Assembly: GCA_963714895.1 (NCBI GenBank)
Contig: CAVQQC010000020.1
Location: 21,985-85,984, forward strand
Length of the DNA stretch: 64,000 nt
DNA from: Candidatus Sulfomarinibacteraceae bacterium
GTDB lineage: Bacteria > Acidobacteriota > Thermoanaerobaculia > Thermoanaerobaculales > Sulfomarinibacteraceae
Direction: 5' to 3'
Part shown: positions 2,943-64,000 of the stretch, in pieces
Position numbering within the stretch: the stretch's first letter is position 1
Layout: the number at the start of each line of letters is the position of its first letter
Notes under the pieces: generated by a model
The model's database searches: none
Told to the model about the DNA's origin: nothing
Seen by the model: only the letters and a program-made list of their open reading frames with translations
Program-made: the position numbers and the translations under genes

Positions 2943-2968
2943 GAATTCGGAATTCGGAATTCGGATTT
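2943..2968. repeat. Tandem heptamer array (GAATTCG)x3.5
   Basis: gaattcggaattcggaattcggattt begins 4 nt after the RND stop codon. Confidence 0.9.
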
Positions 2969-3124
2969 GCCGACCAACCTCCCACCGATAAGTGCGCCCG
3001 AGTGTTCAGGGAGGGTGGTACCCAACCGCATGGCACGCGGGACGCGTGCCCCACAAACGTCTCAGCGGCGGCCCGGTTGTGGGGCAGCCGTCCCGCCTTC
3101 CAGGTAGGTGTGACCGCTTGCGGC

Positions 3125-3212
3125 GGAGGTGCCACTTTTGACATTGTTGGATTCCCGGATCTTCACGAAGTGAGGGATTTCTCGGGCCACACAATGTCAA
3201 GGGTGGCTCCTC
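3125..3212 (+). repeat. Family-A hairpin element, copy 1 (REP-like or structured RNA candidate)
   Basis: GGAGGTGCCAC-TTTTGACATTGT ... ACAATGTCAAGG-GTGGCTCCTC. About 20-bp stem with a 43-nt loop. The same architecture recurs at 19766, 24997, 25120, 27518, 28078 and 55804 (reverse orientation). Confidence 0.8.
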
Positions 3213-3392
3213 TCGGGAATGCCGTTCAGAAACGGCCCGGGTGCGGAGGAGGTGCCATTTGAGCCTTGTGCAAGATCATCGACACTGCCGTTCTTCGGTG
3301 GTGCTTCAGGAAGGCGGGGCAGGCCCCGCCACTACAGGGAAGTGCCCTTTGCGGGTAGGGGCGGCACCTGTGCCGCCCGGTCTCAATCAGTT

Positions 3393-3420
3393 TCTGAAGG
3401 TGGGCCAGGGCCTACCGTAC
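3393..3420. repeat. REP-like palindrome, family C (TCTGAAGGTGGGCCAGGGCCTACC)
   Basis: Near-identical to tctgaaggtgggccaaggcccaccctac at 11247-11274. Confidence 0.7.
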
Positions 3421-3489
3421 GCCGTGCCGACGGCGATAAGCCACGTTCGGGTGCTCACGCCGTGTTGGACGTGCCACCATTCTTTTTCT

Positions 3490-3545
3490 GTCCGCCGGCC
3501 GTTGGCCGGCGGACAAAAAGAGGTCCCGGCCGTGAGGCCGGGACC
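3490..3545 (-). terminator. Putative intrinsic terminator of the TonB-dependent receptor gene (double hairpin)
   Basis: Two hairpins: ggtcccggcc-gtga-ggccgggacc (3522-3545) and gtccgccggcc-gtt-ggccggcggac (3490-3514). On the minus strand the first hairpin lies 9 nt after the stop codon and is followed by TCTTTTT. Confidence 0.6.
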
Positions 3546-3553
3546 GAAAGTGA

Positions 3554-10673: not shown

Positions 10674-11108
10674 TCACTTCGGAGGGATCTCCTCGTTGCC
10701 GTTCAGCCCCCCGAGGCGCCGCAGCCCATCGCCGACCTCGAACCAGCTCGCGTGGTGGTCGTAGAAGACGTGCGCTGCAGGCGCCCGGTCGATGGGCTCC
10801 TCCATGTGGGCGAGAGCGATGTGGATCTCGTCGGGCCATCGTTCGCCCTCGAAAAAGAGGGTGCTGCCGCAGCGGCCGCAGAAGCCGCGGCGGGCCGGCG
10901 GCGAGGACCGGTACCAGACGAGGTGTTCCTCACCCGAGGTCATCGAGAACTGCGTCCGCTCCACCCCGAACCACGTCACGAACGCCGCGCCGTGGGCGCG
11001 CCGGCACAGTGAACAGTGGCAGTGGGCGCACCACTTCGTCGGCGGCACGATCTCGAACCGGACGGCGCCGCACAGGCAACGGCCGGTCAAGGAAGAATCG
11101 TCGCTCAT
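10674..11108 (-). CDS. GFA family protein (glutathione-dependent formaldehyde-activating / CENP-V fold)
   Basis: GRCLCGAVRFEI…WCAHCHCSLCRRAHGAAF…GFCGRCGSTLF carries the characteristic Zn-binding Cys pattern. Confidence 0.85.
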   Translation of the reverse strand: MSDDSSLTGRCLCGAVRFEIVPPTKWCAHCHCSLCRRAHGAAFVTWFGVERTQFSMTSGEEHLVWYRSSPPARRGFCGRCGSTLFFEGERWPDEIHIALAHMEEPIDRAPAAHVFYDHHASWFEVGDGLRRLGGLNGNEEIPPK

Positions 11109-11147: not shown

Positions 11148-11178
11148 GATGTTGGATGTTGGATTGTTGATGTTGGAT
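11148..11178. repeat. Tandem heptamer array (GATGTTG)x4
   Basis: gatgttggatgttggattgttgatgttggat lies upstream of the GFA gene start. Confidence 0.85.
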
Positions 11179-11252
11179 CACCTTTGTCCAAAACAGCATC
11201 ATGGACTGCACCGGCTCACAGGTAGATTCCACTCACCCTTGGTGGGTCTGAA

Positions 11253-11322
11253 GGTGGGCCAAGGCCCACCCTACGTTGGGCCCTCATATCGAGCGAACTT
11301 GTAGGGTGGGCCTTGGCCCACC
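11253..11322. repeat. Pair of inverted REP-like palindromes, family C
   Basis: ggtgggccaaggcccaccctac (11253-11274) and its exact reverse complement gtagggtgggccttggcccacc (11301-11322). Each unit is itself a hairpin. Confidence 0.9.
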
Positions 11323-11358
11323 ATCAGAGCTATTGATCCATGCCGCGAGCAGCCATGG

Positions 11359-13500
11359 TCAACGCTGGGCGTCGATCCGTTGCTGCCAAACGGCTGCAGC
11401 CTCAGTGTCGCCGATCTCGCGGCAGGTTCGCGCCGCCACGAAGAGACTGATGGGGTTGGGATTGGCCTCGACCATGCGCTCGAGGGTCGAACGGGCCTGA
11501 TCGACCCGCCGCGTGACGTAGTAGACAACCGCCAGGTTGGTGTAGGCGGTCAGGTTCTCCGGGTACCAGGCGATCTCGGTCAGGAAATCCCTCTCGGCCT
11601 CGTCGAATCGTTCCAGACGGCCCATGAGATCGCCGCGCACCAGATGGAGGCGCGGGACCGGATCGAGATGTTGCGCCTCGAGTTCCTCGTCCGCGGCCTC
11701 GACCAGACCGAGGGCCTCGTCCACCCGGCCCTGGCCGGCGAGAACCTCCGCCAGGAACACGGCGCCGACCACCCGATGCAAGGGATCCTCCATCGCCAGC
11801 CTGGCCTCGGATTCAGCCGCGGTGAGGTTGCCTCGCGCGAACTCGATCCGTCCCAGCTGCAGATGGCCGGCGGCCGATCCGGCGGCGATACAGCGCCTCG
11901 CCCACACCTCCGCCTCGTCCCAGCGGCGAAGCCCCTGGTGGATCGCGGCGAGCGCGGCGCCGCACTTGGCGGTCAGCGACGGGTCGAGCTTGATGGTCTC
12001 TTTGTAAGCCGAGATCGCCTCCTCCAGGCGGCCGCTTGAATGGCTGATCGTGGCGAGTTGGAGCCAGCCGGCGGTGAAGCCCGGGTTTGCCGCCACCAGC
12101 TCTTGCAGGCGGGCCACCGCCTTGGCGGTGTTGCCTGCAGCCGCCAGCCCGGTGGCCTCGTTGAGGAGGTGGAGAGTCTCGATCCGGTCCTTGGGGTCCG
12201 CCAGCGGGCCCGCCGGCGTTGCCGCCACCTCGCCGACATAACCGAGGGCGCGGAGACGGTCGGCATCCACGGGGTCGATGTTCGGCGCCTCCTCGAGGGG
12301 ACGCACTTCTGGCGCGAGAACGGCAGCGAGCCGTTCCGCTTCGACGGGCAACTCCTCGATCAGATCGTTCTCTTCCGCCGGGTCGGCGACGACGTCGAAA
12401 AGCTCCGGGCGAGGGGCGGAGATCAAATGGTGGCGCCCGTCGATCAGCGACCACAGCTCGGACCACCCGAAGTGGATGCGGGGAACCCAGGTCTCGGCGA
12501 TGATCGCGCGTGAAGCGGCATCACCGGCCGGTCTGCCGAACAGGGACCGCCCGCGCTCGTCGGGCGGCGGCTCGATGCCCACCAACCGCGTCACCGTTGG
12601 CAGGACGTCGATCAGCTGCACCGGTTGGTCGACGGTCGTGGCGCCGAGGGCGCCGCCGGGGAGCCGGATGATCAGGGGCACCTGGATCGCCTCGCGGTAG
12701 AGGAAGATCCCGTGCTCGGCCTCACCGTGATCGCCGAGACCCTCGCCGTGGTCGGAAAGCAGCACGATGATCGCCCGGTCGTAGAGACCCATCTGTTTCA
12801 GGAAAGCCAGGAAGTCGCCGACATCGGCGTCCGCGGTGGCGATCTCACCGTCGTAGGCGAGCGGGTAGCGGCTGGCAAACGGCTCCGGTGGATCGTAGGG
12901 GGTGTGGGGCTCGAAGAGGTGGAGAAAATAGAAAAGCGGTTGGTCGGCATGCTCTCCGATCCAACTCTGCGCGGCCTTCACGGTGTCGCGGCCGACGCGT
13001 TCGAGGGCCGCGCCGGCGCCCTCGCCGGCGATCAGAAAGTCGTCGTCGTAGACGTCGAAGAGCGGTCCGAGACCGGTGCCGGCGCGCAGGACATAGGCCG
13101 ACACCGCGGCACCGGTCACGTAGCCCCCGGCCTCCAGCAGCGATGGAATGGTGGGGTGCCGGACGCCGTCAAAGGTGAAACCGAGGTTGTTGCGCACGCC
13201 GTGGTCGGCAGGGAGAACGCCGGTGAGTATCGACACGTGCGACGGCAGAGTGAGCGGCGAGTGGGAGTAGGCGCGCGAAAAAAGAACCGATTCGGCGCGC
13301 AGGCCGTCGATGTTCGGAGTCTCGACCCCGCGATAGCCATAGACCGGCAGGTGGTCGGAACGCAGGGTGTCGATCGAGATCAGGATGACCGGAGCGCCAG
13401 GGAAGCTGAGTTCGGTCTCCGAAGCGTCGGCGCCAACCTGCTGCCGTCGGCCGCCACACGAGACCCCAAACATGGCCAGGAGGGTCAGGGCCAAGCACAT
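11359..13500 (-). CDS. Sulfatase-family hydrolase fused to C-terminal TPR repeats
   Basis: VILISIDTLRSDHLPVYGY…SHSPLTLPSHVSILTG…LSDHGEGLGDHGE… are sulfatase motifs. The C-terminal half is TPR-like. The start is uncertain: ATG 13500 gives MCLALTLLAMFGVSCGG, and the ORF extends to 13584. Confidence 0.8.
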   Translation of the reverse strand: MCLALTLLAMFGVSCGGRRQQVGADASETELSFPGAPVILISIDTLRSDHLPVYGYRGVETPNIDGLRAESVLFSRAYSHSPLTLPSHVSILTGVLPADHGVRNNLGFTFDGVRHPTIPSLLEAGGYVTGAAVSAYVLRAGTGLGPLFDVYDDDFLIAGEGAGAALERVGRDTVKAAQSWIGEHADQPLFYFLHLFEPHTPYDPPEPFASRYPLAYDGEIATADADVGDFLAFLKQMGLYDRAIIVLLSDHGEGLGDHGEAEHGIFLYREAIQVPLIIRLPGGALGATTVDQPVQLIDVLPTVTRLVGIEPPPDERGRSLFGRPAGDAASRAIIAETWVPRIHFGWSELWSLIDGRHHLISAPRPELFDVVADPAEENDLIEELPVEAERLAAVLAPEVRPLEEAPNIDPVDADRLRALGYVGEVAATPAGPLADPKDRIETLHLLNEATGLAAAGNTAKAVARLQELVAANPGFTAGWLQLATISHSSGRLEEAISAYKETIKLDPSLTAKCGAALAAIHQGLRRWDEAEVWARRCIAAGSAAGHLQLGRIEFARGNLTAAESEARLAMEDPLHRVVGAVFLAEVLAGQGRVDEALGLVEAADEELEAQHLDPVPRLHLVRGDLMGRLERFDEAERDFLTEIAWYPENLTAYTNLAVVYYVTRRVDQARSTLERMVEANPNPISLFVAARTCREIGDTEAAAVWQQRIDAQR

Positions 13501-14186: not shown

Positions 14187-14534
14187 CTACCCGGGGTTGG
14201 CCTGGACCATCTCCGCCATGATCCGGTCGGCGTGGGCGGCATCGATCGACACGAAGGCGACCCCGACGTCGAAACCGCCCTCCTTGGCGGGCTTTTCCCA
14301 CACCACCCGACCGATCGCCTCCACGACCTCGTGGTCGACGGTGAGCATGAGTCGCAGATAGGAATCGATCCCCAATGACTCGATGCTGTTGATCATGAGA
14401 CCGCCGGGCCCCATCTGGCGGGCGGTGGCCATCTCGCGTTGTTCCGCCGGACCGATACGGTGAATCAGGACCACATTTTCGGTCGGGATTCTCGGAAACT
14501 GACGCCGTGTGGGTGTGAGTTCGTCCTCAAGCAT
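14187..14534 (-). CDS. PilZ domain-containing protein
   Basis: RRQFPRIPTE…GGLMINS…GRVVW…GVAFV matches the RxxxR … D/NxSxxG-type c-di-GMP-binding fold. Confidence 0.65.
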   Translation of the reverse strand: MLEDELTPTRRQFPRIPTENVVLIHRIGPAEQREMATARQMGPGGLMINSIESLGIDSYLRLMLTVDHEVVEAIGRVVWEKPAKEGGFDVGVAFVSIDAAHADRIMAEMVQANPG

Positions 14535-14585
14535 GCAGATACCTCACGCCCCATTGTACCGCGAAGCCGCTCACGAAGCCCGGCA

Positions 14586-14758
14586 ATTTCGGATTTCGGA
14601 TTTCGGATTTCGGATTTGACCTTTCCCCACCGTCGATCTACGAGGTGGAGGGGGTGGTGAAATCCACCTACCCGCTACCCGAATTGGTCATCACGCAACG
14701 AGGCGGGACGAGCGATGGAAAATCCGAAATCCGAAATCCGAAATCCGAAATCCGAATT
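14586..14758. repeat. Inverted pair of heptamer arrays: (ATTTCGG)x4.5 at 14586-14618 and (AAATCCG)x5.5 at 14720-14758
   Basis: The arms are perfectly complementary and could form a stem of about 33 bp around a 101-nt spacer. The right arm lies inside the 3' end of the ABC ATPase ORF. Confidence 0.9.
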
Positions 14759-15491
14759 CAGAGGAGGTGGGTCTGTCCTCGACGACGACCCCGTCGCGGA
14801 TCTCGACCATGCGGTTGGCGCGTCCGGCCAGCGCCTTGTCGTGGGTCACCACCACCAGGGTCCTGCCCTGTTTCCAGAGACCGTCGAGCACGCTCATCAC
14901 GTCCGAGCCCGACCCGGTGTCGAGGTTGCCGGTGGGCTCGTCGGCGAGCACGATGTCCGGCTCCATGGCCAGGGCGCGGGCGATGGCCACCCGTTGCATC
15001 TGCCCACCCGAGAGCTCGGTGGGTTTGTGCTCCACGCGATCCGCCAGGCCGACGGACTCGAGTTGCTCGAGGGCCCTTCGCCGCCGTTCTTTGCGGCCGA
15101 CGCCGCCGAAGAGAAGCGGCATCTCCACGTTTTCGAGGGCACTGAGTTGCGGCAGGAGGTTGAAGTTCTGAAAGACGAAGCCGACCCGCCGGTTGCGGAT
15201 GTCGGCCAACTGGTCGCGGTCGAGACCGGACACCGCCTCGCCCCCCAGCCGGTACTCACCATCGGACGGCGTGTCGAGGCAGCCGAGAAGGTTGAGCAAC
15301 GTCGACTTGCCGGAACCGGAGGGGCCGACCACCGCCACGAACTCCCCGCCCTTGACCACGAGATCGATCCCGCGCAGCGCCTCGACCTTGATCTTGCCGG
15401 TGTCGTAGACCTTGGTGATCGCGCTCATGTCGATGATGTGGCCGTTCGACTCCGCGACCCCGTTCTTCTTCTTGCCCAGTGACCAGTTCAT
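14691..15491 (-). CDS. ABC transporter ATP-binding protein (MacB/LolD-type)
   Basis: Walker A GPSGSGKST, signature LSGGQMQRVAIARAL, Walker B IVLADEPTGNLD. The last ~30 aa (…SSEFGFRISDFGFRIFHRSSRLVA) are encoded by the heptamer array. Confidence 0.9.
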   Translation of the reverse strand: MNWSLGKKKNGVAESNGHIIDMSAITKVYDTGKIKVEALRGIDLVVKGGEFVAVVGPSGSGKSTLLNLLGCLDTPSDGEYRLGGEAVSGLDRDQLADIRNRRVGFVFQNFNLLPQLSALENVEMPLLFGGVGRKERRRRALEQLESVGLADRVEHKPTELSGGQMQRVAIARALAMEPDIVLADEPTGNLDTGSGSDVMSVLDGLWKQGRTLVVVTHDKALAGRANRMVEIRDGVVVEDRPTSSEFGFRISDFGFRIFHRSSRLVA

Positions 15492-15532
15492 CGAGAACTC
15501 CGATTCTGATTGCAGACACGTGCGACTTCATA

Positions 15533-15642
15533 ATTTCGAATTTCGAATTTCGAATTTCGGATTTTTCCGCTACCCAACCGACCACGATACGGAACGGGGC
15601 TGGACCGGAAATTCGAAATCCGAAATCCGAAATCCGAAATAG
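15533..15642. repeat. Inverted pair of heptamer arrays: (ATTTCGA)x3-(ATTTCGG) at 15533-15565 and (GAAATCC)x4 at 15608-15642
   Basis: Located in the intercistronic gap between the permease and the ATPase, with a 42-nt spacer. Most arm mismatches become G-U pairs only in minus-strand (sense) RNA. Confidence 0.85.
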
Positions 15643-15651: not shown

Positions 15652-16914
15652 TCACTCGTACCTCAGGGTTTCTGCAGGGTCCACCGTCGCGGCTCGTCGC
15701 GCTGGGAAATAGCCGGCGAGAATGCCGATGCCGCCGAGGATGGCGGCGGTCGCCGCCGCGATCTGCCACGACAGCGTCGGTTTACCGAGGAACTCCATCG
15801 CCTGGTTGCCCTCCACCGGGACCATGCCGAGAAGCAGGATCATCACCACCGCGAGGGCAAGACCGAGGGCGCCCCCGACCAGGGTGTAGGAGAGCCCCTG
15901 CAGGACAAAGGGACCGGTCACCCACCCGCGGCGCGCGCCGAGGGCCATCTGCACCCCGATCTCCCGCGTCTTCTCCTTGACGACCGCGTACATGATGTTG
16001 GCCACCCCGATGCCGCCGATGAGCAGGGTCAAGGCCCCGATGATGCCGAGAAACGCCTGCAACCCGATCATGATGTTGCCCATGACCTTGGCGCCCTCGA
16101 CGGTGTCCCACAGTCCGGTCACCTGTTCGTCGGTTGGATCGAAACGGAACTTGGCCGCCAGGGCCTGGTTGAACTGTTCGCGGGCCACCGGCATGTCCTC
16201 GGCGGTCCGCGCCTTGAAGACGATGTTGGTGAGCCGCTGCCGCCCGAACTGCGCCGCGAAGGTGGTGATGGGGATGACCGAGCCGTCTTCGTCGGGCCCC
16301 TTGTAGGTGCCCATCTGCATCTTGTGCTGGAGAACGCCGATCACCAGGTACGGTACACGGTCGACGAACATGGTTTTCCCCACCGGGTCCTGATCGCCGA
16401 AAATCTCTTTGGCCAGCGCATCTCCGAGGAAGATCACCCGCCGTTTCTCGCGTTCGTCGTTGGCGTTGAAGAACCGCCCGCCGGCCTGTGCGAAGTGGTG
16501 GCGTATCTCGCCGTACTCCCAGTTGGCGCCGGTCACCCTTCCGGTGATGGTGGTCGTGCCGTAGGTCATCGAGCTCGACCAGCTGGTCAACTCACCGATG
16601 ACGCCCGAAGCCGCGGTCATGCGGCCCCGGAGGTAGGTGATGTCGTCCATCCGCGGACGGATCGGACGACCTTCGGGCAACCCCTGCCACACCTTCGAGG
16701 TCTCGTCGGGCCACCACACCGCGATGTTTTCGCCCATGCCGCGGCGGCCCTTCATCAGTTGGATTTTGAGGCCTTCGCCGAAGGACAGCAGCATGATGAT
16801 CGCCACGGTCCCCCAGGCGATGGCGGCGACGGTCAAGGTGGCCCGCTTGCGTTGCAGCGATGAGGCCTTGACGAAGAGCGCGCCCACAACCCGCCAATCG
16901 AGGAGACTCATCAC
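15652..16914 (-). CDS. ABC transporter permease (FtsX/MacB-type)
   Basis: 420 aa. N-terminal TM, a large periplasmic domain, and a C-terminal FtsX 3-TM bundle (…KEKTREIGVQMALGARR…AGYFPARRAATVDPAETLRYE). Confidence 0.9.
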   Translation of the reverse strand: MMSLLDWRVVGALFVKASSLQRKRATLTVAAIAWGTVAIIMLLSFGEGLKIQLMKGRRGMGENIAVWWPDETSKVWQGLPEGRPIRPRMDDITYLRGRMTAASGVIGELTSWSSSMTYGTTTITGRVTGANWEYGEIRHHFAQAGGRFFNANDEREKRRVIFLGDALAKEIFGDQDPVGKTMFVDRVPYLVIGVLQHKMQMGTYKGPDEDGSVIPITTFAAQFGRQRLTNIVFKARTAEDMPVAREQFNQALAAKFRFDPTDEQVTGLWDTVEGAKVMGNIMIGLQAFLGIIGALTLLIGGIGVANIMYAVVKEKTREIGVQMALGARRGWVTGPFVLQGLSYTLVGGALGLALAVVMILLLGMVPVEGNQAMEFLGKPTLSWQIAAATAAILGGIGILAGYFPARRAATVDPAETLRYE

Positions 16915-16952: not shown

Positions 16953-17066
<114 letters not shown>

Positions 17067-17082: not shown

Positions 17083-18317
17083 CTACAGTTTCATCGCCAC
17101 GACGGGGTCGAGCTGGGAAGCGCTTCGTGCCGGGAAGTAACCGGCCATCAGACCCACCAGACCGAGAATCGACGCGGTCATGATCGCGAGACCCGGCGAC
17201 AGCGTGGGCAGACCGACATACTCCTCGAGATTGGTGGGGAACGCCGAGCAGATCGCGAACGAAATGCCGAGACCGATGGCACCACCGATGGCGGTCAGGC
17301 ACATCGTCTCGAGCAGGAACTGACCGAGGACGGCGCGACCGCGTGCGCCGAGCGCCATCTTGATCCCGATCTCTCGGGTGCGCTCCTCGACCACGACATT
17401 CATGATGTTGGAGACGCCGATGCCGCCGACGATCAGGGTCAGCACGCCCATGATGCCGAGGAAGATCTGGAAACCGAGCATGAAGGCGTCCATGAAGACG
17501 AACATCTCGGTGGTGTCCCACAGCTGGATCGCCTGGTCGTCGTCGGGATGGAATCGCAGGCGGCGGCTGAGGGCGGTTCGCACCTGGTCGTTCAGCGCTC
17601 TCGTTGAGGTCAGGGTGACGGCGCCTTGTAGATGAAATTGTCGACATACTTCTGTCCGGTGAGGGCGCGGAAGGTCGACTCGGGGACGATCATCTTGGAA
17701 TGGTCGCGCCCCGAGTAGGACGAGTCCTGCTCTTTGGGCACGAGCACGCCGACCACCAGGAACGGCGACCCGTGGATCATGACCGTCTCGCCGACCGCGT
17801 CCTGGGTGCCGAACAGATCGTCGGCCAGCTCGTTGCCGACAAAGACCACGCGGCGGCGCTGCTCGACATCGATGGTCGTTGATGAACCGGCCGCCTACGG
17901 CCGGGATCATATTGCGCATCACGCCGTAGGCCGGCGACACCCCGGACATCGTGCACCGATCGCTGCCGGTCGCCGTAACGGGCGATCAGGCTCTGCGAGT
18001 ACTCGCTCGAGATGCCGTCGATGAGCGGCGACCTGCGCCTCGAGATAGTCGATGTCCTCCTCCATCATCCGCATCCGGCGTCCCTTGCCGAGACCCTCGA
18101 AGGTCATCGAGGTCCGCATCGGCCAGGCGATGACGATGCGGTCGCCGAGACCGGCGACGCTTTTGATCATCTGCCGGTGAAGCCCGTGGCCGAAGGCGAG
18201 CAGGAGGCTCACCGCCACCGTTCCCCAGATGATGCCGAAGGTCGTCAGGAAGGTGCGCAGCTTCTGGCTCCACAGATCGCGCGCCAGCTGCCGGAAAAAG
18301 GAACCGAAGCCGATCAT
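17083..18317 (-). pseudogene. Second ABC transporter permease (FtsX/MacB-type), frameshifted at least twice
   Basis: The N-terminus MIGFGSFFRQLARDLWSQKLRTFLT… is in the 17919-18377 frame. The middle part (…VFVGNELADDLFG…HGSPFLVVGVL…) is in the 17610-17849 frame. The FtsX C-terminus (…EERTREIGIKMALGARG…AGYFPARSASQLDPVVAMKL) is in the 17083 frame. Confidence 0.85.
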
Positions 18318-18335
18318 CCAGACGACTCCGCGTCT

Positions 18336-18444
<109 letters not shown>

Positions 18445-18445
18445 A

Positions 18446-19765: not shown

Positions 19766-19851
19766 GGAGGTGCCACTTGTCGCATTGTTTGGGATCGGCT
19801 CGTCAACCTGCCTCACGCACGAGGGGCAAACAATGCGACGGGTGGCTCCTC
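19766..19851 (+). repeat. Family-A hairpin element, copy 2
   Basis: GGAGGTGCCACTTGTCGCATTGTTTG … CAAACAATGCGACGGGTGGCTCCTC. The inner stem differs from copy 1 by paired changes (GAC/GTC becomes CGC/GCG). Confidence 0.8.
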
Positions 19852-24881: not shown

Positions 24882-24893
24882 CGGAGCAACCAC

Positions 24894-24928: not shown

Positions 24929-24942
24929 TCAGAGCATCCACG

Positions 24943-24967: not shown

Positions 24968-24996
24968 CAATTTCGGATTTCGGATTGCTACAGGCC

Positions 24997-27393: not shown

Positions 27394-27425
<32 letters not shown>

Positions 27426-45413: not shown

Positions 45414-45422
45414 GAAAACGTT

Positions 45423-45524
45423 ATGAGTTTTGAGTTTTGAGTCTTGAGTTGAGGACACTTCTCACCTGCACGGTCAATCGTGGTGAAAGTGAACTCAAAA
45501 CTAAAAACTCAACACTCAAAACTA
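45423..45524. repeat. Imperfect inverted pair of heptamer arrays: (GAGTTTT)x4 at 45423-45453 and (AAAACTC-like)x4.5 at 45491-45524
   Basis: Fills the trpA-rsmA intercistronic gap with a 37-nt spacer. The right arm reaches the trpA stop codon. Confidence 0.85.
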
Positions 45525-47544: not shown

Positions 47545-47643
47545 CGAGTTCTGAGTTCTTAGTTTTGAGTTATCCCGATCCATCGGGATGCTCCCGGGCG
47601 GGGCGATGGAAATTCAAAACTCAAAACTCAAAACTCAAAACTG
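47545..47643. repeat. Imperfect inverted pair of heptamer arrays: (GAGTTCT/GAGTTTT)x4 at 47545-47573 and (AAAACTC)x4.5 at 47609-47643
   Basis: Located between the PD40 lipoprotein stop and the trpB start, with a 35-nt spacer containing cccgat-cc-atcggg. Two of three arm mismatches are G-U compatible only on the minus (sense) strand. Confidence 0.85.
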
Positions 47644-48676: not shown

Positions 48677-48711
48677 GAAATCCTCCTCATCCGGATCTAC
48701 GGGAGAACGCC

Positions 48712-49309
48712 TCAGCGGGTTGCCGACCGGGCGTTGTCGATGAACCGCCGGATCTTCGCGTGATCCTTGACGCCCGGTGCAGCTTTCGACGCCGGATGAC
48801 ACATCGACCAGATACGGCCGAGTCGCACGAACGGCATCGGCGACATTTTCCGGAGTGAGACCGCCCGCGAGACCGAAACGCAGACCTGGCGGTCCGTCCG
48901 CCAGACACTCCCACGCCCACGCAAGGCCGTCTCCCGCGCCGGGATCGAAAAGGGGGAGACAGATCCCTGCAAGATGGGCGACCCGTTCCCAGTCAACGTC
49001 GGGACCGACCTTGACCCGGCGAATCACCTGCCGCCCGAGCACTTCGAGAAACGAGTCGGGTTCGTCGCCGTGGAGTTGGACCCAGTCGAGCCCGAGCTTT
49101 TTCCGAATCTGGAGCACCTCAGATAACGGCGCGTCGAGAAAGACCCCGACGGTTTCGGCCCCCCGTACGTCACGGATCCAATCCGCCCGTTCCGGCACCA
49201 GCATCCGAGGGGTCCCGGGTCGAAAAACGAACCCCAGAAAATCGGCGCCGGCGGCGACGGCGGCTTCGGCGTCGTCGGGTCGGGTGATGCCGCAGATCTT
49301 GATCAGCAT
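48712..49309 (-). pseudogene. trpF: Phosphoribosylanthranilate isomerase, one frameshift near the 3' end
   Basis: MLIKICGITRPDDAEAAVAAGADFLGFVF…LAGGLTPENV…VDVSSGVES, then …APGVKDHAKIRRFIDNA…* in the 48712 frame. The uncorrected frame runs on into the lipoprotein gene. Confidence 0.9.
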
Positions 49310-49340
49310 GTGGCCCTTCACGACGTCGGCCGCCGGAATC

Positions 49341-50139
49341 TCACGCGCCCGGTCGGGAGAGCCGGCCGCTGAGACGCCGCACCTCGCGCTCCGGGTCGCC
49401 GGAACGGACGAGGTGTTCGCCGATCAGAAAGGCGTGATAACCCGCCGCGTGCAACCGGTCGATGTCCTTGGGGCCGGTGATTCCACTCTCGGCAACCCTG
49501 ATTCGGTCGTCTGGAATCTTTTCGGCCGCTGCCTCGACGCGATCCAAGCGAATCTCGAAGGTGGCGAGATCGCGCGCATTGACCCCGATGATGGCGGCCC
49601 CGGAATCCACCGCCGGACCGGGGTCCTCGTCGGCGAAGATCTCGAGCAGCACCTCGAGCTGGAGCATCTCGGCGGTCGACAACAGGTCCTTGAGTCGCTG
49701 AGGGCTGAGGATCCGGGTGATGAGCAGGACCGCGTCCGCTCCGAGCAGGACGCTTTCGAAGAGCTGCCGCCGCTCGATGATGAAATCCTTGCGCAGGATC
49801 GGGCAGATCCACCGCCTTGCGGACCTCGATCAGCCACAGTGGGTCGCCGGCGAACGAGTCGCGCTCGGTCACCACCGAGATGGCTGCGGCTGGCCGGCCG
49901 CATAGGCCTGGGCGAGAAGTACCGGATCGAATTTCTCGCGGATCACCCCCGCCGACGGCGAGGCCTTCTTGCACTCGGCGATGATCTCGATGTCGGGTCC
50001 GGCCAGTGCGCGTTTCAGCGACCGCGGGCGGGTTTTTCGCTGTTCGACCAGCCGTATCGCGGCCCGCTCGAGACCGGGCGCTTGCGGGGTCCACTGAAGT
50101 CGCTTGCGGACATCCGCGACGATGTTGTCGAGAATCGAC

Positions 50140-51182: not shown

Positions 51183-51186
<4 letters not shown>

Positions 51187-51821
51187 GTTTCGTCCCGATT
51201 TCGGATTTCGGATTTCGGATTTCGGATTTTCGCCCACTCATCTCTGACAGGAAGGTCGGCAAGGCGCAGAAAATTGGCGAGGAGGTGGCGGCCGTGGTGG
51301 CAGAGGTAGGACTCCGGGTGGAACTGGACGCCGTAGTGGGGACGGTCGCGATCCCGGAGACCCATGATGGTGCCGTCGGTCGTCCATGCGGTGAGTTCCA
51401 ACGACCCCGGCAGAGAGTCTTTTTCCACCACCAGCGAGTGGTACCGGGTCGCCTCGAACGGGTCCGGCAGACCCTCGAAGAGCCCGGTGCCGTCGTGGTG
51501 CACCGGCGAAGTCTTACCGTGCACCGGCTCCGAGGCCCGCACGACCCGGCCTCCGTGGACAGCCGCCAATGCCTGGTGGCCGAGACAGATCCCGAGAAGA
51601 GGCAAGGAGGTAGCGGTCCGCACCATCTCCATCGTGACGCCGGCGTCCTCAGGCACCCCGGGGCCGGGCGAGATGACGATGGCGTCGGGTTTCAGGGCCA
51701 GCAACTCACTCACAGTCGACGCGTCGTTGCGCACCACCTCGATCGGCGTGAGGCCGACCTCCGCAAGCTCCTGCACCAGGTTGTAGGTGAAGGAGTCGTA
51801 GTTGTCGATCATCAGGATCAT
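51183..51821 (-). CDS. trpG: Anthranilate synthase component II (glutamine amidotransferase)
   Basis: MILMIDNYDSFTYNLVQ…LLGICLGHQAL…GVQFHPES… The last ~25 aa (…KIRNPKSEIRNPKSEIRNRDET) are encoded by the heptamer array at 51198-51230. Confidence 0.9.
51198..51230. repeat. Tandem heptamer array (ATTTCGG)x4.5 at the trpG/trpD junction
   Basis: atttcggatttcggatttcggatttcggatttt lies within the 3' end of the trpG ORF. Confidence 0.9.
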
Positions 51822-51839
51822 CTCGCCCCTCCACCATCG

Positions 51840-52020
51840 GAATTTTGAATTTTGAATTTTGAATTTTGAATTATCGGGCGAATCCAGGCTGTGAAAGGCA
51901 CCCCGGGCCGGCCACCGCAGTTCCGATGTCGAAATTCGGAAATGCCACCAATCACCACCTGAAAACAGCTCTGAGGAGCGGACCGAAAAATCCGAAATCC
52001 GAAATCCGAAATCCGAATTT
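51840..52020. repeat. Two heptamer arrays bracketing the trpE-trpG gap: (GAATTTT)x4.5 at 51840-51873 and (AAATCCG)x4.5 at 51987-52020
   Basis: The arms are non-complementary and flank a 113-nt unique core. The right array ends 2 nt before the trpE stop. Confidence 0.85.
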
Positions 52021-53510: not shown

Positions 53511-53565
53511 GGCGCCTCCTCGGTTGTCGAAGAGGCATTGTGACGTAAACAGGGGGATGGGTCTA

Positions 53566-53750
53566 GCAATGGGGCGATGAGGCCATCGGGCAATGAGGCA
53601 ATGAGGCAGTGAGGCAGTGACGTAGATTCGAGTAAGCCCACGGCCTCATTGCCCCATTGCCAGGTTGCGGAGCAACCGGCCACTGCCCCATCGCCAGGCC
53701 GCATCGCGGCCGGTCACTCGCTCACCGCCTCACTGCCTCACTGCCCCAGC
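53566..53750. repeat. Octamer-based inverted repeat in the trpE/asnS divergent region
   Basis: Left arm, 7 tandem 8-mers: GCAATGGG GCGATGAG GCCATCGG GCAATGAG GCAATGAG GCAGTGAG GCAGTGAC (53566-53621). The right side (53640-53750) carries the complementary units CTCATTGC, CCCATTGC, …GTCACTCG CTCACCGC CTCACTGC CTCACTGC. Confidence 0.8.
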
Positions 53751-53790: not shown

Positions 53791-55092
53791 ATGCCGCGCC
53801 CCGTCATTACGATTGCCGAACTTTCCCAACACGCCGATCAGGAGGTGACCCTCAACGGATGGGTCTACAACTGGCGCAAGAAGGGCAAGCTGCGTTTCAT
53901 CATTCTGCGCGACGGTTTCGGTTACCTGCAGTGCGTGGTCTTCCAACCCGAGGTCGACGAGGCGGTGTGGGAGAGGGCGGTCGAACTGACCCAGGAGTCG
54001 TCGGTCGCCATCACCGGCAGGGTGGCGGTGGACGAACGAGCCCCGGGCGGCTTCGAACTCAAGGTGAGCGCCATCGACGTGATCCAGCTCGCCCCCGAGT
54101 ACCCGATCGGCAAGAAAGACCACGGCCCCGACTTCCTCCTCAACCACCGCCACCTGTGGCTGCGGTCGAAGAGACAGCACGCCATCATGCGGGTGCGGTC
54201 GGAGGTGGAGTTCGCGATCCGCGATTTCTTCCAGACTCGCGGTTACACCCTCATCGACTCGCCCATCCTCACCCCGGCGGCGTGCGAGGGCACCTCGACC
54301 CTGTTTGAAACCGAGTATTTCGGCGAGACCGCATTCCTCTCACAATCGGGCCAGCTCTACCTCGAACCGGCGGCGGCCGCCCTCGGCAAGGTCTACTGCT
54401 TCGGACCGACCTTCCGCGCCGAGAAATCCAAGACGCGGCGCCACCTGACCGAGTTCTGGATGGTCGAGCCCGAGGTGGCGTGGCTGCGGTTCGACGGTCT
54501 GCTCGATCTGTGCGAGGAGTTCCTCTCCCAGGTCGTGGCGCGGGTGCTCGATCGCTGCGCTCAAGATCTCGAGCGGCTCGAACGCGACACCACCAAACTC
54601 GAGCCGACCGCGGCCGGCGGTTTCCCGCGGCTCGACTACGCTGATGCGGTCACCAAACTGCAGGAACTCGGCTCGGACATCCAGTTCGGCGACGACCTCG
54701 GCGGCGACGACGAGACCATGCTGACCGAACTGTACGACCGCCCGCTCGCCGTGACCCGCTACCCGGCGGCCATCAAGGCCTTCTACATGCAACCCGACCC
54801 GCAAGACCCTACCCGTGCCCTGGCGGTCGACGTGCTCGCCCCCGAAGGCTACGGCGAGATCATCGGCGGTTCCGAGCGCTGCGACTCGCTGGAGCACCTC
54901 GAGCGCCAGATCGCCGCCCACGAATTGCCGCGCGAGGCCTTCGAGTGGTACCTCGATGTCCGCCGCTACGGCTCCTTCCCGCACGCCGGTTTCGGGATGG
55001 GGATCGAGCGTTGCGTGGCGTGGATCTGCGGCATTTCGCACCTCAGGGAGGCCATCCCCTATCCGAGGTTGATCAACCGGTTGAACCCGTGA
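53791..55092 (+). CDS. asnS: Asparagine--tRNA ligase
   Basis: GGGAGGA Shine-Dalgarno plus ATG 53791. An OB-fold N-terminus and class IIb core: …[25 protein letters not shown]…, …[11 protein letters not shown]…, …[16 protein letters not shown]… 433 aa. AsnRS is favoured over AspRS on size and motifs. Confidence 0.85.
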
Positions 55093-55093: not shown

Positions 55094-55127
<34 letters not shown>

Positions 55128-55183: not shown

Positions 55184-55711
55184 ATGTATCTGGATCCGAA
55201 AGTCCGGTTGGCGTATGTGGTGACGAAGGTGGCGGTGTTCGGGGTTGCCGCGCTCGCCACGTGGCCGTTGTCGCGGATGATCGGATCGAAGGCGTGGATC
55301 GGTCTCGCTGTATTCGGTGCGATCCTGGCGGTGATGACGGCGTTCTTCCTCCTGAGTTCCTCCCGCGACCCTGAAGCCGGCGCCGAGGAGGAGGAGTCGC
55401 CCCTCGATGACGCGGTTGACCCCGAGCAACCGTTCGTGATGCCGGTCGAGGACAGCATCGACCTCCACCCGTTTCCGCCGCGCGACGTGCCCGACGTGGT
55501 CGACGCCTACCTTGAATCGGCCTCCGAAAAGGGATTCCGTGAGGTCCGGGTGATCCACGGCCGGGGCATCGGCGTGCAGCGCGACCGGGTGCAGAAGCTG
55601 CTCGCCCGACACCCGCTGGTTTCGGGTTTCCACGACGCCCCGCCCGACCGCGGCGGTTGGGGCGCGACCGTGGTGTATCTCAAGCCGGGCAAAGAAACGT
55701 TAGAACGTTAG
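55184..55711 (+). CDS. Membrane-anchored Smr domain protein
   Basis: Two N-terminal TM helices, then …[49 protein letters not shown]… (Smr/MutS2 C-terminal-type domain). Confidence 0.75.
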
Positions 55712-55727
55712 AACGTTGGAACGTTGT
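55696..55727. repeat. Tandem octamer array (AACGTTAG/AACGTTGG)x4
   Basis: aacgttagaacgttagaacgttggaacgttgt spans the Smr gene stop codon. Confidence 0.85.
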
Positions 55728-55962: not shown

Positions 55963-55998
55963 AAAATTCGAAATCCGAAATTCGAAATCCGAAATTTC
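55963..55998. repeat. Tandem heptamer array (AAATTCG/AAATCCG)x5
   Basis: Lies immediately downstream of the stop codon of the HMA gene, which is on the minus strand. Confidence 0.85.
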
Positions 55999-56001: not shown

Positions 56002-56319
56002 TCAACCCTCGACAGCCTCGGTCGTCACCCCGGTCACGGTGTAGCCGAGCTCTTCGATCTCGGTCTCGAGCGTCTCCACCCCCACTTTACGTGGATCGTA
56101 GACGACTTCCGCGGTGCCCTCCACGTGGTCTGCTGAGGCCTCGATCACGCCGTCCGTCTTTTCGAGAGCGGTGGTGATGGCGGACGAGCAGCTCTCGCAG
56201 TGCATGCCCTCGACGGTGAAGACGGAGCGAATGGGTTCGGGGCCGGTGCACGCAGCCAGAGTCACCACCGCAACCGCAGCTACAAGCCTCACGCTCACCG
56301 TCGTCAGAATATGTCGCAT
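56002..56319 (-). CDS. Heavy-metal-associated (HMA) domain lipoprotein (CopZ/MerP-like)
   Basis: Lipobox VVTLAACTG. FTVEGMHCESCSSAITTAL carries the MxCxxC metal-binding motif. Confidence 0.85.
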   Translation of the reverse strand: MRHILTTVSVRLVAAVAVVTLAACTGPEPIRSVFTVEGMHCESCSSAITTALEKTDGVIEASADHVEGTAEVVYDPRKVGVETLETEIEELGYTVTGVTTEAVEG

Positions 56320-62263: not shown

Positions 62264-62446
62264 ATGGCGATGGATTTTGAAACGGTCAAGTTCTTACGAC
62301 GCCTTCTGGGGGGTCTGTGCGCGGTCATCGGCGCCGCTGCGGGTTACCAGTATTATGCATTCCTGGGTGGCGTCGGCGGCGTGATCGTCGGTTACGCGGT
62401 CGGCTGGAACCTGGTCGACTTTTTCAAGGGCCGCGCCCACAAGTGA
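62264..62446 (+). CDS. Small hypothetical membrane protein (60 aa)
   Basis: AGGAGAAG Shine-Dalgarno plus ATG 62264. GGLCAVIGAAAGYQYYAFLGGVGGVIVGYAVGW is a glycine-zipper-like TM segment. Confidence 0.4.
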   Translation: MAMDFETVKFLRRLLGGLCAVIGAAAGYQYYAFLGGVGGVIVGYAVGWNLVDFFKGRAHK

Positions 62447-62489
62447 TTTTTCGCGTCTCCAACGATGCCGGCCCGATTGGGCGCCTGAC

Positions 62490-62897
62490 GTGAATCAGAA
62501 GGAATTCGAGTCGGTTGTCGGTGAGGCGCTGGACAGGCTGCCGCTCGAGTTCGCCGATCTGCTGTCGAATCTGACGATCCAGGTCGAGGACCGGCCCGAT
62601 GCTGAGACCATGGCGGACGTCGGTCTCGACCCCAGGTTCGACACCCTCCTCGGGCTCTACACCGGCGTCCCCCTCGACGAACGGGGTGGCTGGTACGGCA
62701 ACGTGCTGCCGGATATCATCGTGCTCTACCGGAAGCCCCTTCTCGCCGCCTGCCGCGACCGACGCGAGTTGATCCACCAGATCCAACTGACCCTGTTGCA
62801 CGAGATCGGGCACCACTTCGGGTTCTCCGAGGAGGAGATGGAGGCCTGGGAACATGAGTTCAGGGGGCTCGAGGGCGGGGGTCCCGATTCGGGCTGA
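62490..62897 (+). CDS. Metallopeptidase-family protein (DUF1025-like, HExxH)
   Basis: …LSNLTIQVEDRP…LYRKPLL…LLHEIGHHFGFSEEEMEAWE… GTG start. Confidence 0.75.
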   Translation: MNQKEFESVVGEALDRLPLEFADLLSNLTIQVEDRPDAETMADVGLDPRFDTLLGLYTGVPLDERGGWYGNVLPDIIVLYRKPLLAACRDRRELIHQIQLTLLHEIGHHFGFSEEEMEAWEHEFRGLEGGGPDSG

Positions 62898-62917
62898 TCA
62901 TCGAGAGTCAATTCTCA

Positions 62918-62944
62918 GTTTCGGATTTCGGATTTCGGATTTTC
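62918..62944. repeat. Tandem heptamer array (TTTCGGA)x3.5
   Basis: gtttcggatttcggatttcggatttt lies 20 nt after the metallopeptidase stop. Confidence 0.9.
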
Positions 62945-63030
62945 ACCCACCCCTCGCGTGAGCCGGACGGGCTGTTCGAGGAATCGAGAATCCGTCGACC
63001 GCAGCCCTTGAGATTCTGTATCCTCGTTGC

Positions 63031-63837
63031 ATGACACGGCGCAAGGAAAATCTTCATCCGATCGAGGCGTCTGAACTCCACGCCCGCCGCGAGCGGGTGT
63101 TCCTCGTGCTCGCCGGTCTCTTTCTCGGGACCCTGGCGATGCTCAACATTCTCGGCATCAGCCGCTTCATCAAGCTCTTCGAAACCACCACCGGCGGCGG
63201 GACCCCGCTGGTCTTCGCGATCGCCATCGGCGTCCTACCCTACCCGATGACCTTTCTGTGCACCGACTTCATCTGTGAGTTCTACGGCCGCAAGCGGGCC
63301 AATCACGTGGTGTTTGTGGGTCTGCTGCTCAACATCTGGGTGGTCGCGATCATCTGGCTCGGCGGCGTGCTGCCCGGTTTCGAGACCATCGACCCGACCA
63401 CCGGCGCGATCGTTCGCGACGCCGCCGGCCGCCTGCCGGTGTTCTTCGAAATCCGCGCCCTGACCTTCGGCGCAGTGACGGCGTCGATGATCGCCTACAT
63501 GGCGGCCCAGTTCTGCGATGTCTACGTCTTTCACTTCTGGAAGAAGGTCACCAAAGGTCGCCTCTTGTGGGTCCGCAACAACGGCTCGACCATGGTCAGC
63601 CAACTCGTCGACACCACCGCCGTCATCCTCATCACCCACTATTTCGCCCACGCCCTGCCCATCGACCCCGCCCAACCCCTGGCCCGGCAACTCGCGCTCT
63701 TCATCTTCACCGGTTACGCCTTCAAGTTCGTCTTCGCCGCCCTCGACACCGTGCCCTTCTACCTCGGCGTGCGCTTCCTCAAGGGCTATCTCCAGCTCGA
63801 CCCCACCATCGATCACGACCTCGACGGCGGCCGCTGA
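63031..63837 (+). CDS. yhhQ: Queuosine-precursor transporter (YhhQ/VUT, DUF165 family)
   Basis: …GVLPYPMTFLCTDFICEFYGRKRAN…AQFCDVYVFHFWKK…LWVRNNGSTMVSQLVDTTAVI…. Confidence 0.8.
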   Translation: MTRRKENLHPIEASELHARRERVFLVLAGLFLGTLAMLNILGISRFIKLFETTTGGGTPLVFAIAIGVLPYPMTFLCTDFICEFYGRKRANHVVFVGLLLNIWVVAIIWLGGVLPGFETIDPTTGAIVRDAAGRLPVFFEIRALTFGAVTASMIAYMAAQFCDVYVFHFWKKVTKGRLLWVRNNGSTMVSQLVDTTAVILITHYFAHALPIDPAQPLARQLALFIFTGYAFKFVFAALDTVPFYLGVRFLKGYLQLDPTIDHDLDGGR

Positions 63838-64000
63838 CGTTCAACGTTGGGTTCTTGCGGAATCCGTGGGGTGAAGAGATGCCAAAGACATCGAACGAGA
63901 ACGAACACGGACATCAGATTCTGTATGAGCCGCGGAGCGGCGGCAGAAAATAGCCCGGGGCGTGAGCCCCGGGAACCGCGGTTCAAATTTTTGAAAAGCC

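Follow-up and report, generated by a model that had tools for sequence, protein, structure and literature searches.

Intergenic heptanucleotide arrays in a 64-kb stretch of an Acidobacteriota genome: an oriented, often paired element of about 33 nt

A stretch of 64,000 nt from the genome of Candidatus Sulfomarinibacteraceae bacterium (contig CAVQQC010000020.1, positions 21,985 to 85,984; the whole stretch is called the window below) carries many short tandem arrays of heptanucleotides between its genes. Their identification as the Acidobacteriota form of the intergenic heptanucleotide repeats is well supported; the element is about 33 nt long and consists of five A/T blocks spaced 7 nt apart. 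The initial annotation of the window, made from the sequence alone, had missed three of its properties: inverted pairing, a length fixed near 33 nt and an orientation set by gene direction. The likeliest role of the arrays, to which we assign a probability of roughly 0.4, would be exerted in the transcript, with the A/C-rich arm as a leader and the G/U-rich arm as a stop-proximal structure.

The intergenic heptamer arrays of the window are real. They were searched for with a strict detector, requiring at least 3 copies of the unit, and the counts were compared with those obtained from 20 dinucleotide-preserving shuffles of the window. Nineteen strict arrays of period 7 were detected, against a shuffle mean of 0.05, and five of period 8, against a mean of 0, while the counts for periods 4-6 and 9-12 were at or near chance level. 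None of the 24 strict arrays (7- and 8-mers) lies more than 45 nt inside a called open reading frame (ORF), despite the fact that called ORFs make up about 75% of the window. About 34 arrays are found in the 64 kb, i.e. about one per 2 kb (Table 1). The initial annotation had listed start positions for about 33 of them, and Tandem Repeats Finder (TRF) places an array at every one, a few bases off at most, with the named units readable in the raw sequence; the bias for intergenic over coding DNA and the location at gene boundaries or extreme ORF ends hold. Occupation of 'almost every gene boundary' was too strong a statement, since arrays are located at 19 of 55 junctions, or at 18 of the 40 where the gap is at least 30 nt. 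The description of the units as A/T-rich is appropriate for the 7-mer arrays (66% AT, in a window of 62-68% GC), not for the 8-9-mers (8-mer arrays, 42% AT). Finally, an assembly artefact, which the initial annotation had considered, is excluded by the presence of arrays in the orthologous slots of six independent assemblies, from ENA, NCBI and JGI.

The coordinates of the initial annotation are correct, but most of the arrays that it counted as separate are the two arms of long palindromic modules. In these, a G/T-rich arm is followed by a GC-rich core of 40-115 nt, containing its own hairpins, and by an A/C-rich arm. Eight pairs of heptamer arrays are present in the window and seven of them are inverted (14586/14720, with 32 nt 100% complementary, 15532/15608, 16953/17034, 18335/18411, 45420/45492, 47546/47610 and 51840/51988), whereas the pair at 24894-24986, surrounding a terminator, is composed of two G/T-rich arms. 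A module of 8-mers is found at 53566-53745. A single long hairpin is predicted on either strand for the 8-mer module (folded as 53564-53747) and for six of the eight heptamer pairs, with z between -3.8 and -8.3; the two groups of 8/9-mers at 40455-40980 do not fold into a long hairpin. According to these predictions, the transcript of a paired junction can fold into one such hairpin, whose stem measures about 30 bp.

Arm length in the window has its mode at 32-33 nt, corresponding to 4.6-4.7 units, or five A/T blocks and four G/C blocks. Loci from other phyla were collected by scanning one genome per species for exact (ATTTCGG)4, which produced at least 120 matches; all that is reported here on other phyla refers to the matches listed. 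The 32-33 nt mode recurs there, both in 174 arrays of the ATTTCGG family and in 191 arrays of other units, which lie outside the search selection. The order of the arms is also constant: in neighbouring arrays, considering all loci, a G/T-rich array precedes an A/C-rich one in 46 cases and follows it in 4. Relative to the genes of the window, and read in their sense, the G/U-rich arm starts between -16 and +21 nt from the upstream stop codon (median about 5), often being fused to TGA, and 17-57 nt separate the end of the A/C-rich arm from the next start. The 8-mer arrays at 40858-40978 do not obey the rule of G/T first, A/C second. Modules are found at co-directional, convergent and divergent junctions alike. 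The orientation rule is followed by genes on both strands of the window, and an orientation linked to replication, considered as a candidate explanation, is thereby ruled out.

Matches to (ATTTCGG)4 were found in Verrucomicrobiota, Planctomycetota, Chloroflexota, Acidobacteriota, Bacteroidota, Myxococcota, Proteobacteria and others, frequently in loci containing further heptamer arrays of unrelated units. Most arrays in these phyla are unpaired, i.e. have no partner array within 200 nt. Unpaired arrays located after stops are G/T-rich in 32 cases and A/C-rich in 2, and those preceding starts are A/C-rich in 21 and G/T-rich in 10. The G/T-rich reading abuts the stop of a long ORF on the same strand, often as an in-phase fusion (TGAtttcggatttcgg), which the A/C-rich reading rarely does. 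The same orientation rule holds for the units AGTGGAG, GAATTAG, GAGTCCT, GGATGGC and GATTGCG. Viral contigs contributed 3 exact (ATTTCGG)4 matches, too few to inform.

Comparison with repeats described in other organisms indicates that the arrays belong to a known class of intergenic heptamers; the taxon and the unit family are new, the class is not. The short tandemly repeated repetitive (STRR) sequences of heterocystous cyanobacteria, proposed in the initial annotation as the closest analogue, are a fair one in kind, being tandemly amplified, dispersed intergenic heptamers. Their definition includes, to our knowledge, no stop/start orientation rule and no paired architecture. Taxon and unit sequences also differ (GAATTCG, ATTTCGG, GAATTTT, GAGTTTT and others in the window, as compared with the STRR units), and the arrays are not members of this family. 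Closer analogues have been described in Xanthomonas and Nostoc (PMC4692102) and in Beggiatoaceae (PMC4679880). Similarly, the statement that no description existed stands for the taxon and the unit family, but not for the heptamer class (PMC6344855, PMC4692102): in surveys of prokaryotes, no periodic repeat between genes is more abundant than the tandem heptamer, for whose function 'no clear clue' is given (PMC6344855), and long intergenic simple sequence repeats with units of 5-11 bp are attributed to Mrazek 2007 where PMC4692102 cites that work. A literature search with the array strings found no description of ATTTCGG-type arrays; one bacterial paper with a string match was not assessed.

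Rehm et al. 2015 reported arrays of GGGAATC, 186 in Xanthomonas campestris pv. campestris (Xcc) and 183 in X. axonopodis pv. citri (Xac), and of GGGGAYT in Nostoc PCC 7120 (PMC4692102). Almost all of them are intergenic, with a mode of about four units, and most are transcribed. The G-rich strand is the sense strand in arrays up to 50 bp past a stop, which they may overlap, and the antisense strand in those up to 50 bp ahead of an ORF. In the two Xanthomonas species, each genome has 70-75 convergent inverted pairs, and slots are common to related species, while length and sequence vary (PMC4692102). The arrays of the window are tandem heptanucleotide repeats in the plain sense, with a 7-nt unit repeated head to tail at least 3 times, far above chance and between genes, and they share all four features of the Xanthomonas/Nostoc anatomy, namely the mode of about four units, the orientation relative to stops and starts, the convergent inverted pairs and the conserved slots. 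Units are also similar (GGAATTC and GGATTTC in the window, GGGAATC in Xanthomonas, GGGGATT in Nostoc). On the other hand, the host is an acidobacterium, several unit families coexist in the window, density is higher (the 64 kb hold about 34 arrays, the entire genomes of Xcc and Xac 186 and 183, respectively) and a GC-rich core hairpin is not described for the repeats of PMC4692102. In addition, units of the window lack G3 tracts, carrying only GG or single G. This is relevant, as the Xanthomonas/Nostoc heptamers were explained by formation of G-quadruplexes (G4) (PMC4692102). Quadruplex-enabled folding predicts no G4 for (AUUUCGG)n, (GAAUUCG)n and (GAAUUUU)n, and predicts one for (GGGAAUC)4. 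The same anatomy is found without G4 potential and cannot, therefore, depend on quadruplexes: the sole mechanistic proposal in the literature cannot be general.

Two further systems of heptamers are known. TAACTGA direct repeats were described by MacGregor 2015 in marine Beggiatoaceae, cyanobacteria and Bacteroidetes, together with the proposal of a post-transcriptional role, in which S1, Csp or CsrA would be the candidate readers (PMC4679880). They are likewise intergenic, occur in two to six copies and have a preferred orientation relative to the adjacent start. They differ in being built on a single unit, which contains two stop codons, and in being located mostly immediately upstream of starts, with one inverted pair reported and no stop-proximal class (PMC4679880). 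A Nostoc preprint describes (TTCAAAA)3 upstream of recF and other genes and leaves its role unresolved; unit and orientation are identical to those of arms in the window.

A different type of similarity links the paired modules to the repetitive extragenic palindromic (REP) elements, BIMEs and REPINs of Enterobacteria and Pseudomonas, extragenic hairpin repeats often arranged as inverted doublets between genes of one operon. REP elements shield upstream mRNA from 3' exonucleases, and about half of them reportedly lie within 15 nt of a stop codon, impeding the terminating ribosome, as Liang, Rudd and Deutscher are said to have found in 2015. The window modules share the hairpin close to an upstream stop. 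They do not share the single dispersed palindrome: a REP family has one conserved, imperfect palindrome, spread by a REP-associated tyrosine transposase (RAYT), whereas the modules have arms of tandem 7-mers of several sequences and unconserved cores.

The two strands of an array differ in their folding. An RNA with the sequence of the G/T-rich strand folds on itself by means of G-U pairs (mean -6.3 kcal/mol), and 79% of 182 distinct arrays have an A/C-rich strand whose RNA is essentially without structure. The unstructured reading sits before starts and the structured one at stops, an asymmetry which fits the orientation rule.

The role proposed above may be outlined as follows. Replication slippage would generate and resize the arrays, as loops of 7 nt largely escape mismatch repair; poor repair of loops larger than 3 nt is mentioned in PMC4060949 with reference to earlier work. 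Gene conversion or template switching may then homogenise arrays or swap them, and selection would act on the RNA. In the A/C-rich orientation, the array would provide an AU-rich, essentially unstructured leader before the ribosome-binding site, in a genome of 65% GC. In the G/U-rich orientation, it would either self-fold through G-U pairs or pair with the downstream arm, placing the beginning of a structure at the terminating ribosome. Similarly to REP elements, this structure might stabilise 3' ends, modulate termination and translational coupling, or serve between cistrons as a target for double-strand RNases.

Several observations weigh against such a role, each functional step of which is one that we infer. 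Sense and antisense folds of 33 paired modules are equally stable (16 versus 17, Wilcoxon p = 0.78). Compensatory changes were found in 0 of 43 and 2 of 37 stem pairs, in alignments of 3-4 sequences only, and no sign, therefore, emerges of an RNA helix under long-term selection, as opposed to young DNA palindromes. Two of the eight heptamer pairs (18333-18446 and 51838-52019) are weak, their complementarity having decayed. An A/C-rich arm engaged in pairing is not unstructured, hence the leader and the hairpin roles compete; the Shine-Dalgarno sequence lies outside the stem, hence simple unzipping by the terminating ribosome fails to explain coupling. Slippage alone does not predict the sharp length peak at 33 nt. 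If unpaired arrays are decayed halves of modules, the orientation rule is inherited and does not represent independent evidence. Moreover, the cross-phylum loci were chosen by one unit, (ATTTCGG)4, other units being seen only as neighbours.

The evolution of the arrays was followed at four junctions of the macA-macB-macB-ATPase-pilZ cluster in seven genomes, i.e. the window and six relatives. Identity of the permease protein across the seven ranges from 85 to 99%, and arrays are kept at the same four junctions in all of them. What occupies a junction may change considerably. Copy number differs between relatives, a possibility anticipated in the initial annotation (5.3, 4.6 and 2.6 units in one slot), and so does the unit, GAATTCG/AAAATTC being found in place of ATTTCGG/AAATCCG; some slots contain one arm only, or degenerate arms, and in others the whole module has been swapped. 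Thus, the module of slot B in the window is wholly unlike that of relative L124, with the flanking protein 99% identical, and L125 has a near-identical module, together with its core, at two slots separated by 1.4 kb. In L003 (12173-12282), the ATPase/pilZ slot has about 15 copies of CTGCATC in place of its A/C-rich arm, forming three adjoining arrays, far over 33 nt. In L126 (8505-8536), (GAATTAG)4.6 constitutes the entire 32-nt spacer from the stop of macA (TAG, also contained in the unit) to the start of macB, and its final AGGA falls at the expected Shine-Dalgarno position.

Fast turnover of unit, copy number and whole modules next to such similar proteins is what would be expected of a near-neutral mutational by-product, arising wherever slippage goes unrepaired and coding constraint is absent, with no function of its own. 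The rules of position and orientation would then reflect mere tolerance; not tolerated would be, for example, an A-rich/hairpin/U-rich arrangement resembling a terminator within an operon, structure at a ribosome-binding site, or C-rich RNA, able to load Rho, after a stop. Slots with a single or a degenerate arm, the failure to find a covariation signal in the stems and the broad distribution of such repeats among prokaryotes (PMC6344855) all agree with this, as does the fact that arrays reach stop codons, and sometimes ORF tails (trpG, ATPase), as expansion up to a constraint would. A by-product does not easily account for the occupation of the same four operon junctions in all seven genomes despite sequence turnover, nor for a sharp mode at 32-33 nt, where slippage alone should give a monotonic decay. 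Density is also more than 10 times that of Beggiatoa and Xanthomonas (169-186 arrays per genome; the comparison per kb uses assumed genome sizes), and the 46:4 order and the 32:2 orientation after stops need strong selection anyway. We consider this explanation unlikely, rather than implausible.

Alternatively, the arrays may be a platform for a protein, a reader with a footprint of about 7 nt lined up on the RNA, in which case the 7-nt period and the five blocks would represent protein spacing. Cold-shock-domain proteins are candidates, as are CsrA or the ribosomal anti-Shine-Dalgarno acting on repeated GGA. Cold-shock domains cover about 7 nt each and prefer U-rich RNA. The period is 7, in some arrays 8, and never another, the number of blocks per array is fixed, G/U-rich units are alike in distant phyla, and GGA, GAG or AGGA is contained in most units; the L126 spacer described above, with its last AGGA at the Shine-Dalgarno position, and the readers proposed by MacGregor for TAACTGA arrays point in the same direction. 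A single sequence-specific partner is hardly compatible with units as diverse as AGTGGAG, CTGCATC, GAGTCCT, GATTGCG and the 8-mers, nor with GAATTTT and GAGTTTT, which have no GGA, and no candidate protein is encoded among the window ORFs scanned (30 ORFs, also devoid of RAYT, transposase and cold-shock genes). On balance, a platform of this kind appears improbable. The same may be said, with marginally greater reserve, of one conserved RNA signal of about 33 nt, with five blocks at a spacing of 7 nt, shared across phyla and read by a universal factor moving in 7-nt steps, which would set re-initiation or stability between cistrons. Its G/U-rich tract would be fused to the stop and its complement placed ahead of starts, and the reader could be, for instance, a cold-shock-domain protein or a post-termination ribosome held by GGA. 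Such a signal, if true, would account for the predominance of period 7 among the intergenic repeats of prokaryotes.

An action at the DNA level, through cruciform or slipped structures absorbing supercoiling, or through sites for nucleoid proteins insulating transcription units, has little probability. As DNA, the arms often make up perfect palindromes; they fold no better on one strand than on the other and form islands of 66% AT in a genome of 65% GC, and modules do not discriminate between types of junction; TTTTGAT heptads of the cholera toxin promoter, moreover, bind H-NS and ToxR. A symmetric duplex role, though, would not need unpaired arrays to track the direction of the adjacent gene, as they do after stops (32:2), the GC-rich centre of the palindromes disfavours cruciform extrusion, and a phasing of 7 bp mismatches the helical repeat of DNA.

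Still less probable is a mobile palindromic element, similar to a miniature inverted-repeat transposable element (MITE) or to a REPIN, whose terminal inverted repeats would be the arrays and whose transposase would be encoded elsewhere in the genome. The fixed order of G/T-rich and A/C-rich arms would be expected of terminal inverted repeats, and the duplicated module of L125, or the exchange at slot B relative to L124, could be ascribed to transposition. All-against-all BLAST of the array flanks, performed to look for a dispersed core family, gave orthologous matches and the single L125 duplication only; the cores are not conserved, as those of a MITE would be, and slot comparisons revealed neither target-site duplications nor clean empty sites. 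The window ORFs scanned include no transposase or RAYT, and the predominance of unpaired arrays in other phyla is difficult to reconcile with paired termini.

Two explanations can practically be discounted. Regulatory G-quadruplexes, suggested by the anatomy shared with Xanthomonas/Nostoc, where about four units would give four G-tracts (PMC4692102), are contradicted for this window by the lack of G3 tracts and of any predicted G4. Phase variation, i.e. contingency loci switching genes by copy number, might be suspected from the differences in copy number between relatives, but copy numbers are narrowly distributed, arrays are located after stops or well upstream of starts rather than in 5' coding regions or promoter spacers, and the flanking genes belong to housekeeping operons (trp, ABC exporter, aminoacyl-tRNA synthetase).

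Known RNA features were also evaluated and discarded. The arrays are not intrinsic terminators, as the hairpin of the paired modules precedes an A/C-rich arm and not a U run; a terminator scan of the 14-29 kb region returned 24942-24964 as the sole array-associated fit, with a total below shuffle expectation. No tRNA is found in the window, and no array-linked Rfam 15 match exceeds the gathering score, those below it being generic long hairpins. TTCGAAT is similar to the T-loop of tRNA, a lead that was given up since the main units do not preserve A58, a conserved position.

Heptamers are reported to be the commonest intergenic repeat of prokaryotes, with no 'clear clue' to function (PMC6344855). 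The arrays of the window represent a dense natural test set, in which several junctions of the trp and ABC-exporter operons are occupied, and provide sharper rules that can be tested: orientation, a length of 33 nt, fusion to the stop codon, and a structured G/U reading as opposed to an unstructured A/C reading.

The individual features are reported in Table 1. The closest named matches of the proteins encoded in the window are labelled Acidobacteriota, Thermoanaerobaculales and Holophagae. Modules occupy the macA / macB / macB / ABC ATPase / pilZ junctions of an export cluster; in the trp operon, arrays are located between trpE and trpG, trpG and trpD, trpF and trpB, and after trpA. Arrays also follow genes for a class II aminoacyl-tRNA synthetase, an AcrB-type protein and a ribonucleotide reductase.

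Table 1. Arrays, module cores and associated elements of the window, with their gene context. Positions are those of the window; fractional numbers after the unit are copy numbers.
Feature	Position	Strand	Context
Single array (GAATTCG)3.3	2943-2965	+	G/T-rich in upstream-gene sense; 3 nt after stop of AcrB-type gene 21-2939(+)
Single array (GATGTTG)4.4	11148-11178	+	A/C-rich in sense of GFA gene 10674-11090(-), 57 nt upstream of its start
Paired-module arm (ATTTCGG)4.6	14586-14617	+	A/C-rich arm in minus (gene) sense; upstream of promoter-like TACAAT and PilZ gene 14187-14474(-)
Module core, 102 nt, GC-rich, own hairpins	14618-14719	-	
Arm (AAATCCG)5.3	14720-14756	-	100% complementary to 14586-14617; G/U-rich in gene sense, after ABC ATPase gene; ORF 14691-15491 reads through
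Arm (AATTTCG)4.7	15532-15564	+	A/C-rich in gene sense; 40 nt from ATPase start
Arm (GAAATCC)4.7	15608-15640	-	G/U-rich in gene sense; 11 nt after stop of macB-type permease 15652-16914(-)
Arm (GAATTTT)4.3	16953-16982	+	38 nt from start of permease 15652-16914(-)
Arm (ATTCCGA)4.4	17034-17064	-	18 nt after stop of second (frameshifted) permease gene; complementarity to partner only partial
Arm (TGAGTTT)4.4	18335-18365	+	17 nt from start of second permease gene
Arm (GAATTCC)4.9	18411-18444	-	1 nt after stop of MacA/HlyD-type ORF; pairing with partner largely decayed (fold z = -1.7)
Array (AGTTTTG)4.9	24894-24927	+	Overlaps stop of ribonucleotide-reductase ORF 24166-24909(+)
Classical terminator-like hairpin with T run	24942-24964	+	Between two G/T-rich arrays
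Short array (ATTTCGG)2.4	24970-24986	+	After terminator hairpin
Single array (AATTCGG)4.4	27395-27425	+	A/C-rich in sense of ACBP gene 27092-27370(-), 24 nt upstream of its start
Degenerate array (ACGTTCA)4.4 with indels	27993-28025	.	Intergenic
9-mer array (CACAGAGGT)2.9	28778-28802	.	Abuts perfect non-repeat palindrome 28802-28897, arms 31 nt
9-mer (CAGATCACC)2.6 and 8-mer (CGCAGAGG)3 arrays	40459-40516	.	Left border of 640-nt intergenic region upstream of mutL
8-mer arrays (GCGTCTTT)3.5, (CTTCGTGT)2.9, (CCTCTGTG)2	40858-40978	.	Roughly inverted relative to 40493-40516 across highly structured 330-nt core
Arm (GTTTTGA)4.4	45420-45450	+	Partner 45492-45523
Arm (AACTCAA)4.6	45492-45523	-	G/U-rich in gene sense; 2-nt overlap with stop of trpA 45522-46310(-)
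Arm (GAGTTCT)3.7	47546-47571	+	33 nt from trpB start
Arm (AAACTCA)4.7	47610-47642	-	11 nt after stop of trpF-containing ORF 47654-49321(-)
Single array (GATTTCG)4.7	51197-51229	+	In last 25 codons of trpG ORF 51183-51821(-), beyond GATase domain; just upstream of trpD start
Arm (GAATTTT)4.7	51840-51872	+	18 nt from trpG start
Arm (AAATCCG)4.3	51988-52017	-	5 nt after trpE stop; pairing with partner weak
8-mer module GCAATGAG / CTCATTGC / CTCACTGC	53566-53745	.	Long hairpin, z = -6.5 and -7.5 on the two strands; divergent region between starts of trpE and class II aminoacyl-tRNA synthetase
Single array (GAATTCG)4.7	55094-55126	+	1 nt after stop of synthetase gene 53791-55092(+); 57 nt before Smr gene
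8-mer array (AACGTTAG)3.8	55696-55725	.	Overlaps stop of Smr gene 55184-55711(+)
Single array (AAATTCGAAATCCG)2.4	55964-55995	-	G/U-rich in sense of HMA gene 56002-56268(-), 6 nt after its stop
Single array (TTTCGGA)3.4	62919-62942	+	21 nt after stop of Zincin_1 gene 62490-62897(+)

Nominal read-through of an array occurs in two ORFs, those of trpG and of the ATPase. In trpG, the array lies past the GATase domain, whose last residue is number 185 out of 212. The ATPase ORF continues because TCTTGA, the sequence found in L124, the 99% relative, is TCTGA in the window. The initial annotation had attributed such read-through to common units free of stops in any phase. This does not apply to GAATTTT and GAGTTTT, which generate TGA on the G/T-rich strand; that ORF callers do read through the arrays is correct, and so are the translations it gave for the resulting pseudo-peptides (NPKSEIR, SDFGFRI, NSEFGIR). 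Public permease homologues carry N-terminal extensions derived from arrays, such as 'FEIRNPKSEI' in P0033. This is a problem of annotation, as gene callers extend ORFs through arrays and the resulting false N- and C-terminal peptides are already present in public protein databases.

Three genes with intact orthologues are split by frameshifts in the window: the macB-type permease at 17083-18317, trpC at 49341-50094 and a ParE fragment at 27703-27864. The permease protein of L001 aligns in two reading frames. The split genes are either assembly indel errors or pseudogenes, and copy numbers of the arrays in the window have to be read with that in mind.

A conserved, promoter-like box, GTGAGCGGCTTCGCG(G)TACAAT, with TACAAT as the putative -10 element, sits just downstream of the A/C-rich arm and upstream of the Shine-Dalgarno sequence and start codon. 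It is found at 14553-14574(-), 40428-40442(-) and, in the variant form GCGGCGAAGCCGCGCGGTTACAAT, 27369-27392(-), and also in slot D of L001, L002 and L124.

Long intergenic palindromes not composed of repeats are located at 28802-28897, 11247-11328, 40567-40634 and 25474-25531. Several are perfect, and their arms of 24-32 nt are close in length to the heptamer arms, which points to intergenic stems of about 30 bp as a general trait of the genome. Upstream of mutL, the region 40520-40850 is made up of 330 nt of nested GC-rich hairpins, enclosed between roughly inverted 8-mer arrays (ACGCAGAG, CTTTGCGT), with no ORF and no Rfam match. A further hairpin, GGCACGCGGGACGCGTGCC followed by CCACAAACGT, is found at 3031-3102, where it is one arm of a 29-nt inverted repeat. 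In relatives (L001, about 12300-12330; L125, about 65-107) it has the form GGCAGCCGGGACGGCTGCC-CCACAACCGT, which corresponds to compensatory changes in the stem.

A second dispersed palindromic element of intergenic location is about 90 nt long. It is composed of GAGGTGCCAYTT..ACATTGT, 35-43 nt and ACAATG..GGTGGCTCCTC, with a conserved CGTGCGGCGGAG preceding the left arm, and has no Rfam match. At least 5 copies are present in the 64 kb, at 3126-3212, 19767-19851 and 28079-28163, and as left arms at 24999-25031 and 27510-27542; another is found in L002, at about 1842-1940. The only Rfam match of the window above the gathering score is a full-length Acido-Lenti-1 small RNA at 63928-63973(-), with 59.6 bits against a gathering score of 37; it is unrelated to the arrays and consistent with an Acidobacteriota origin.

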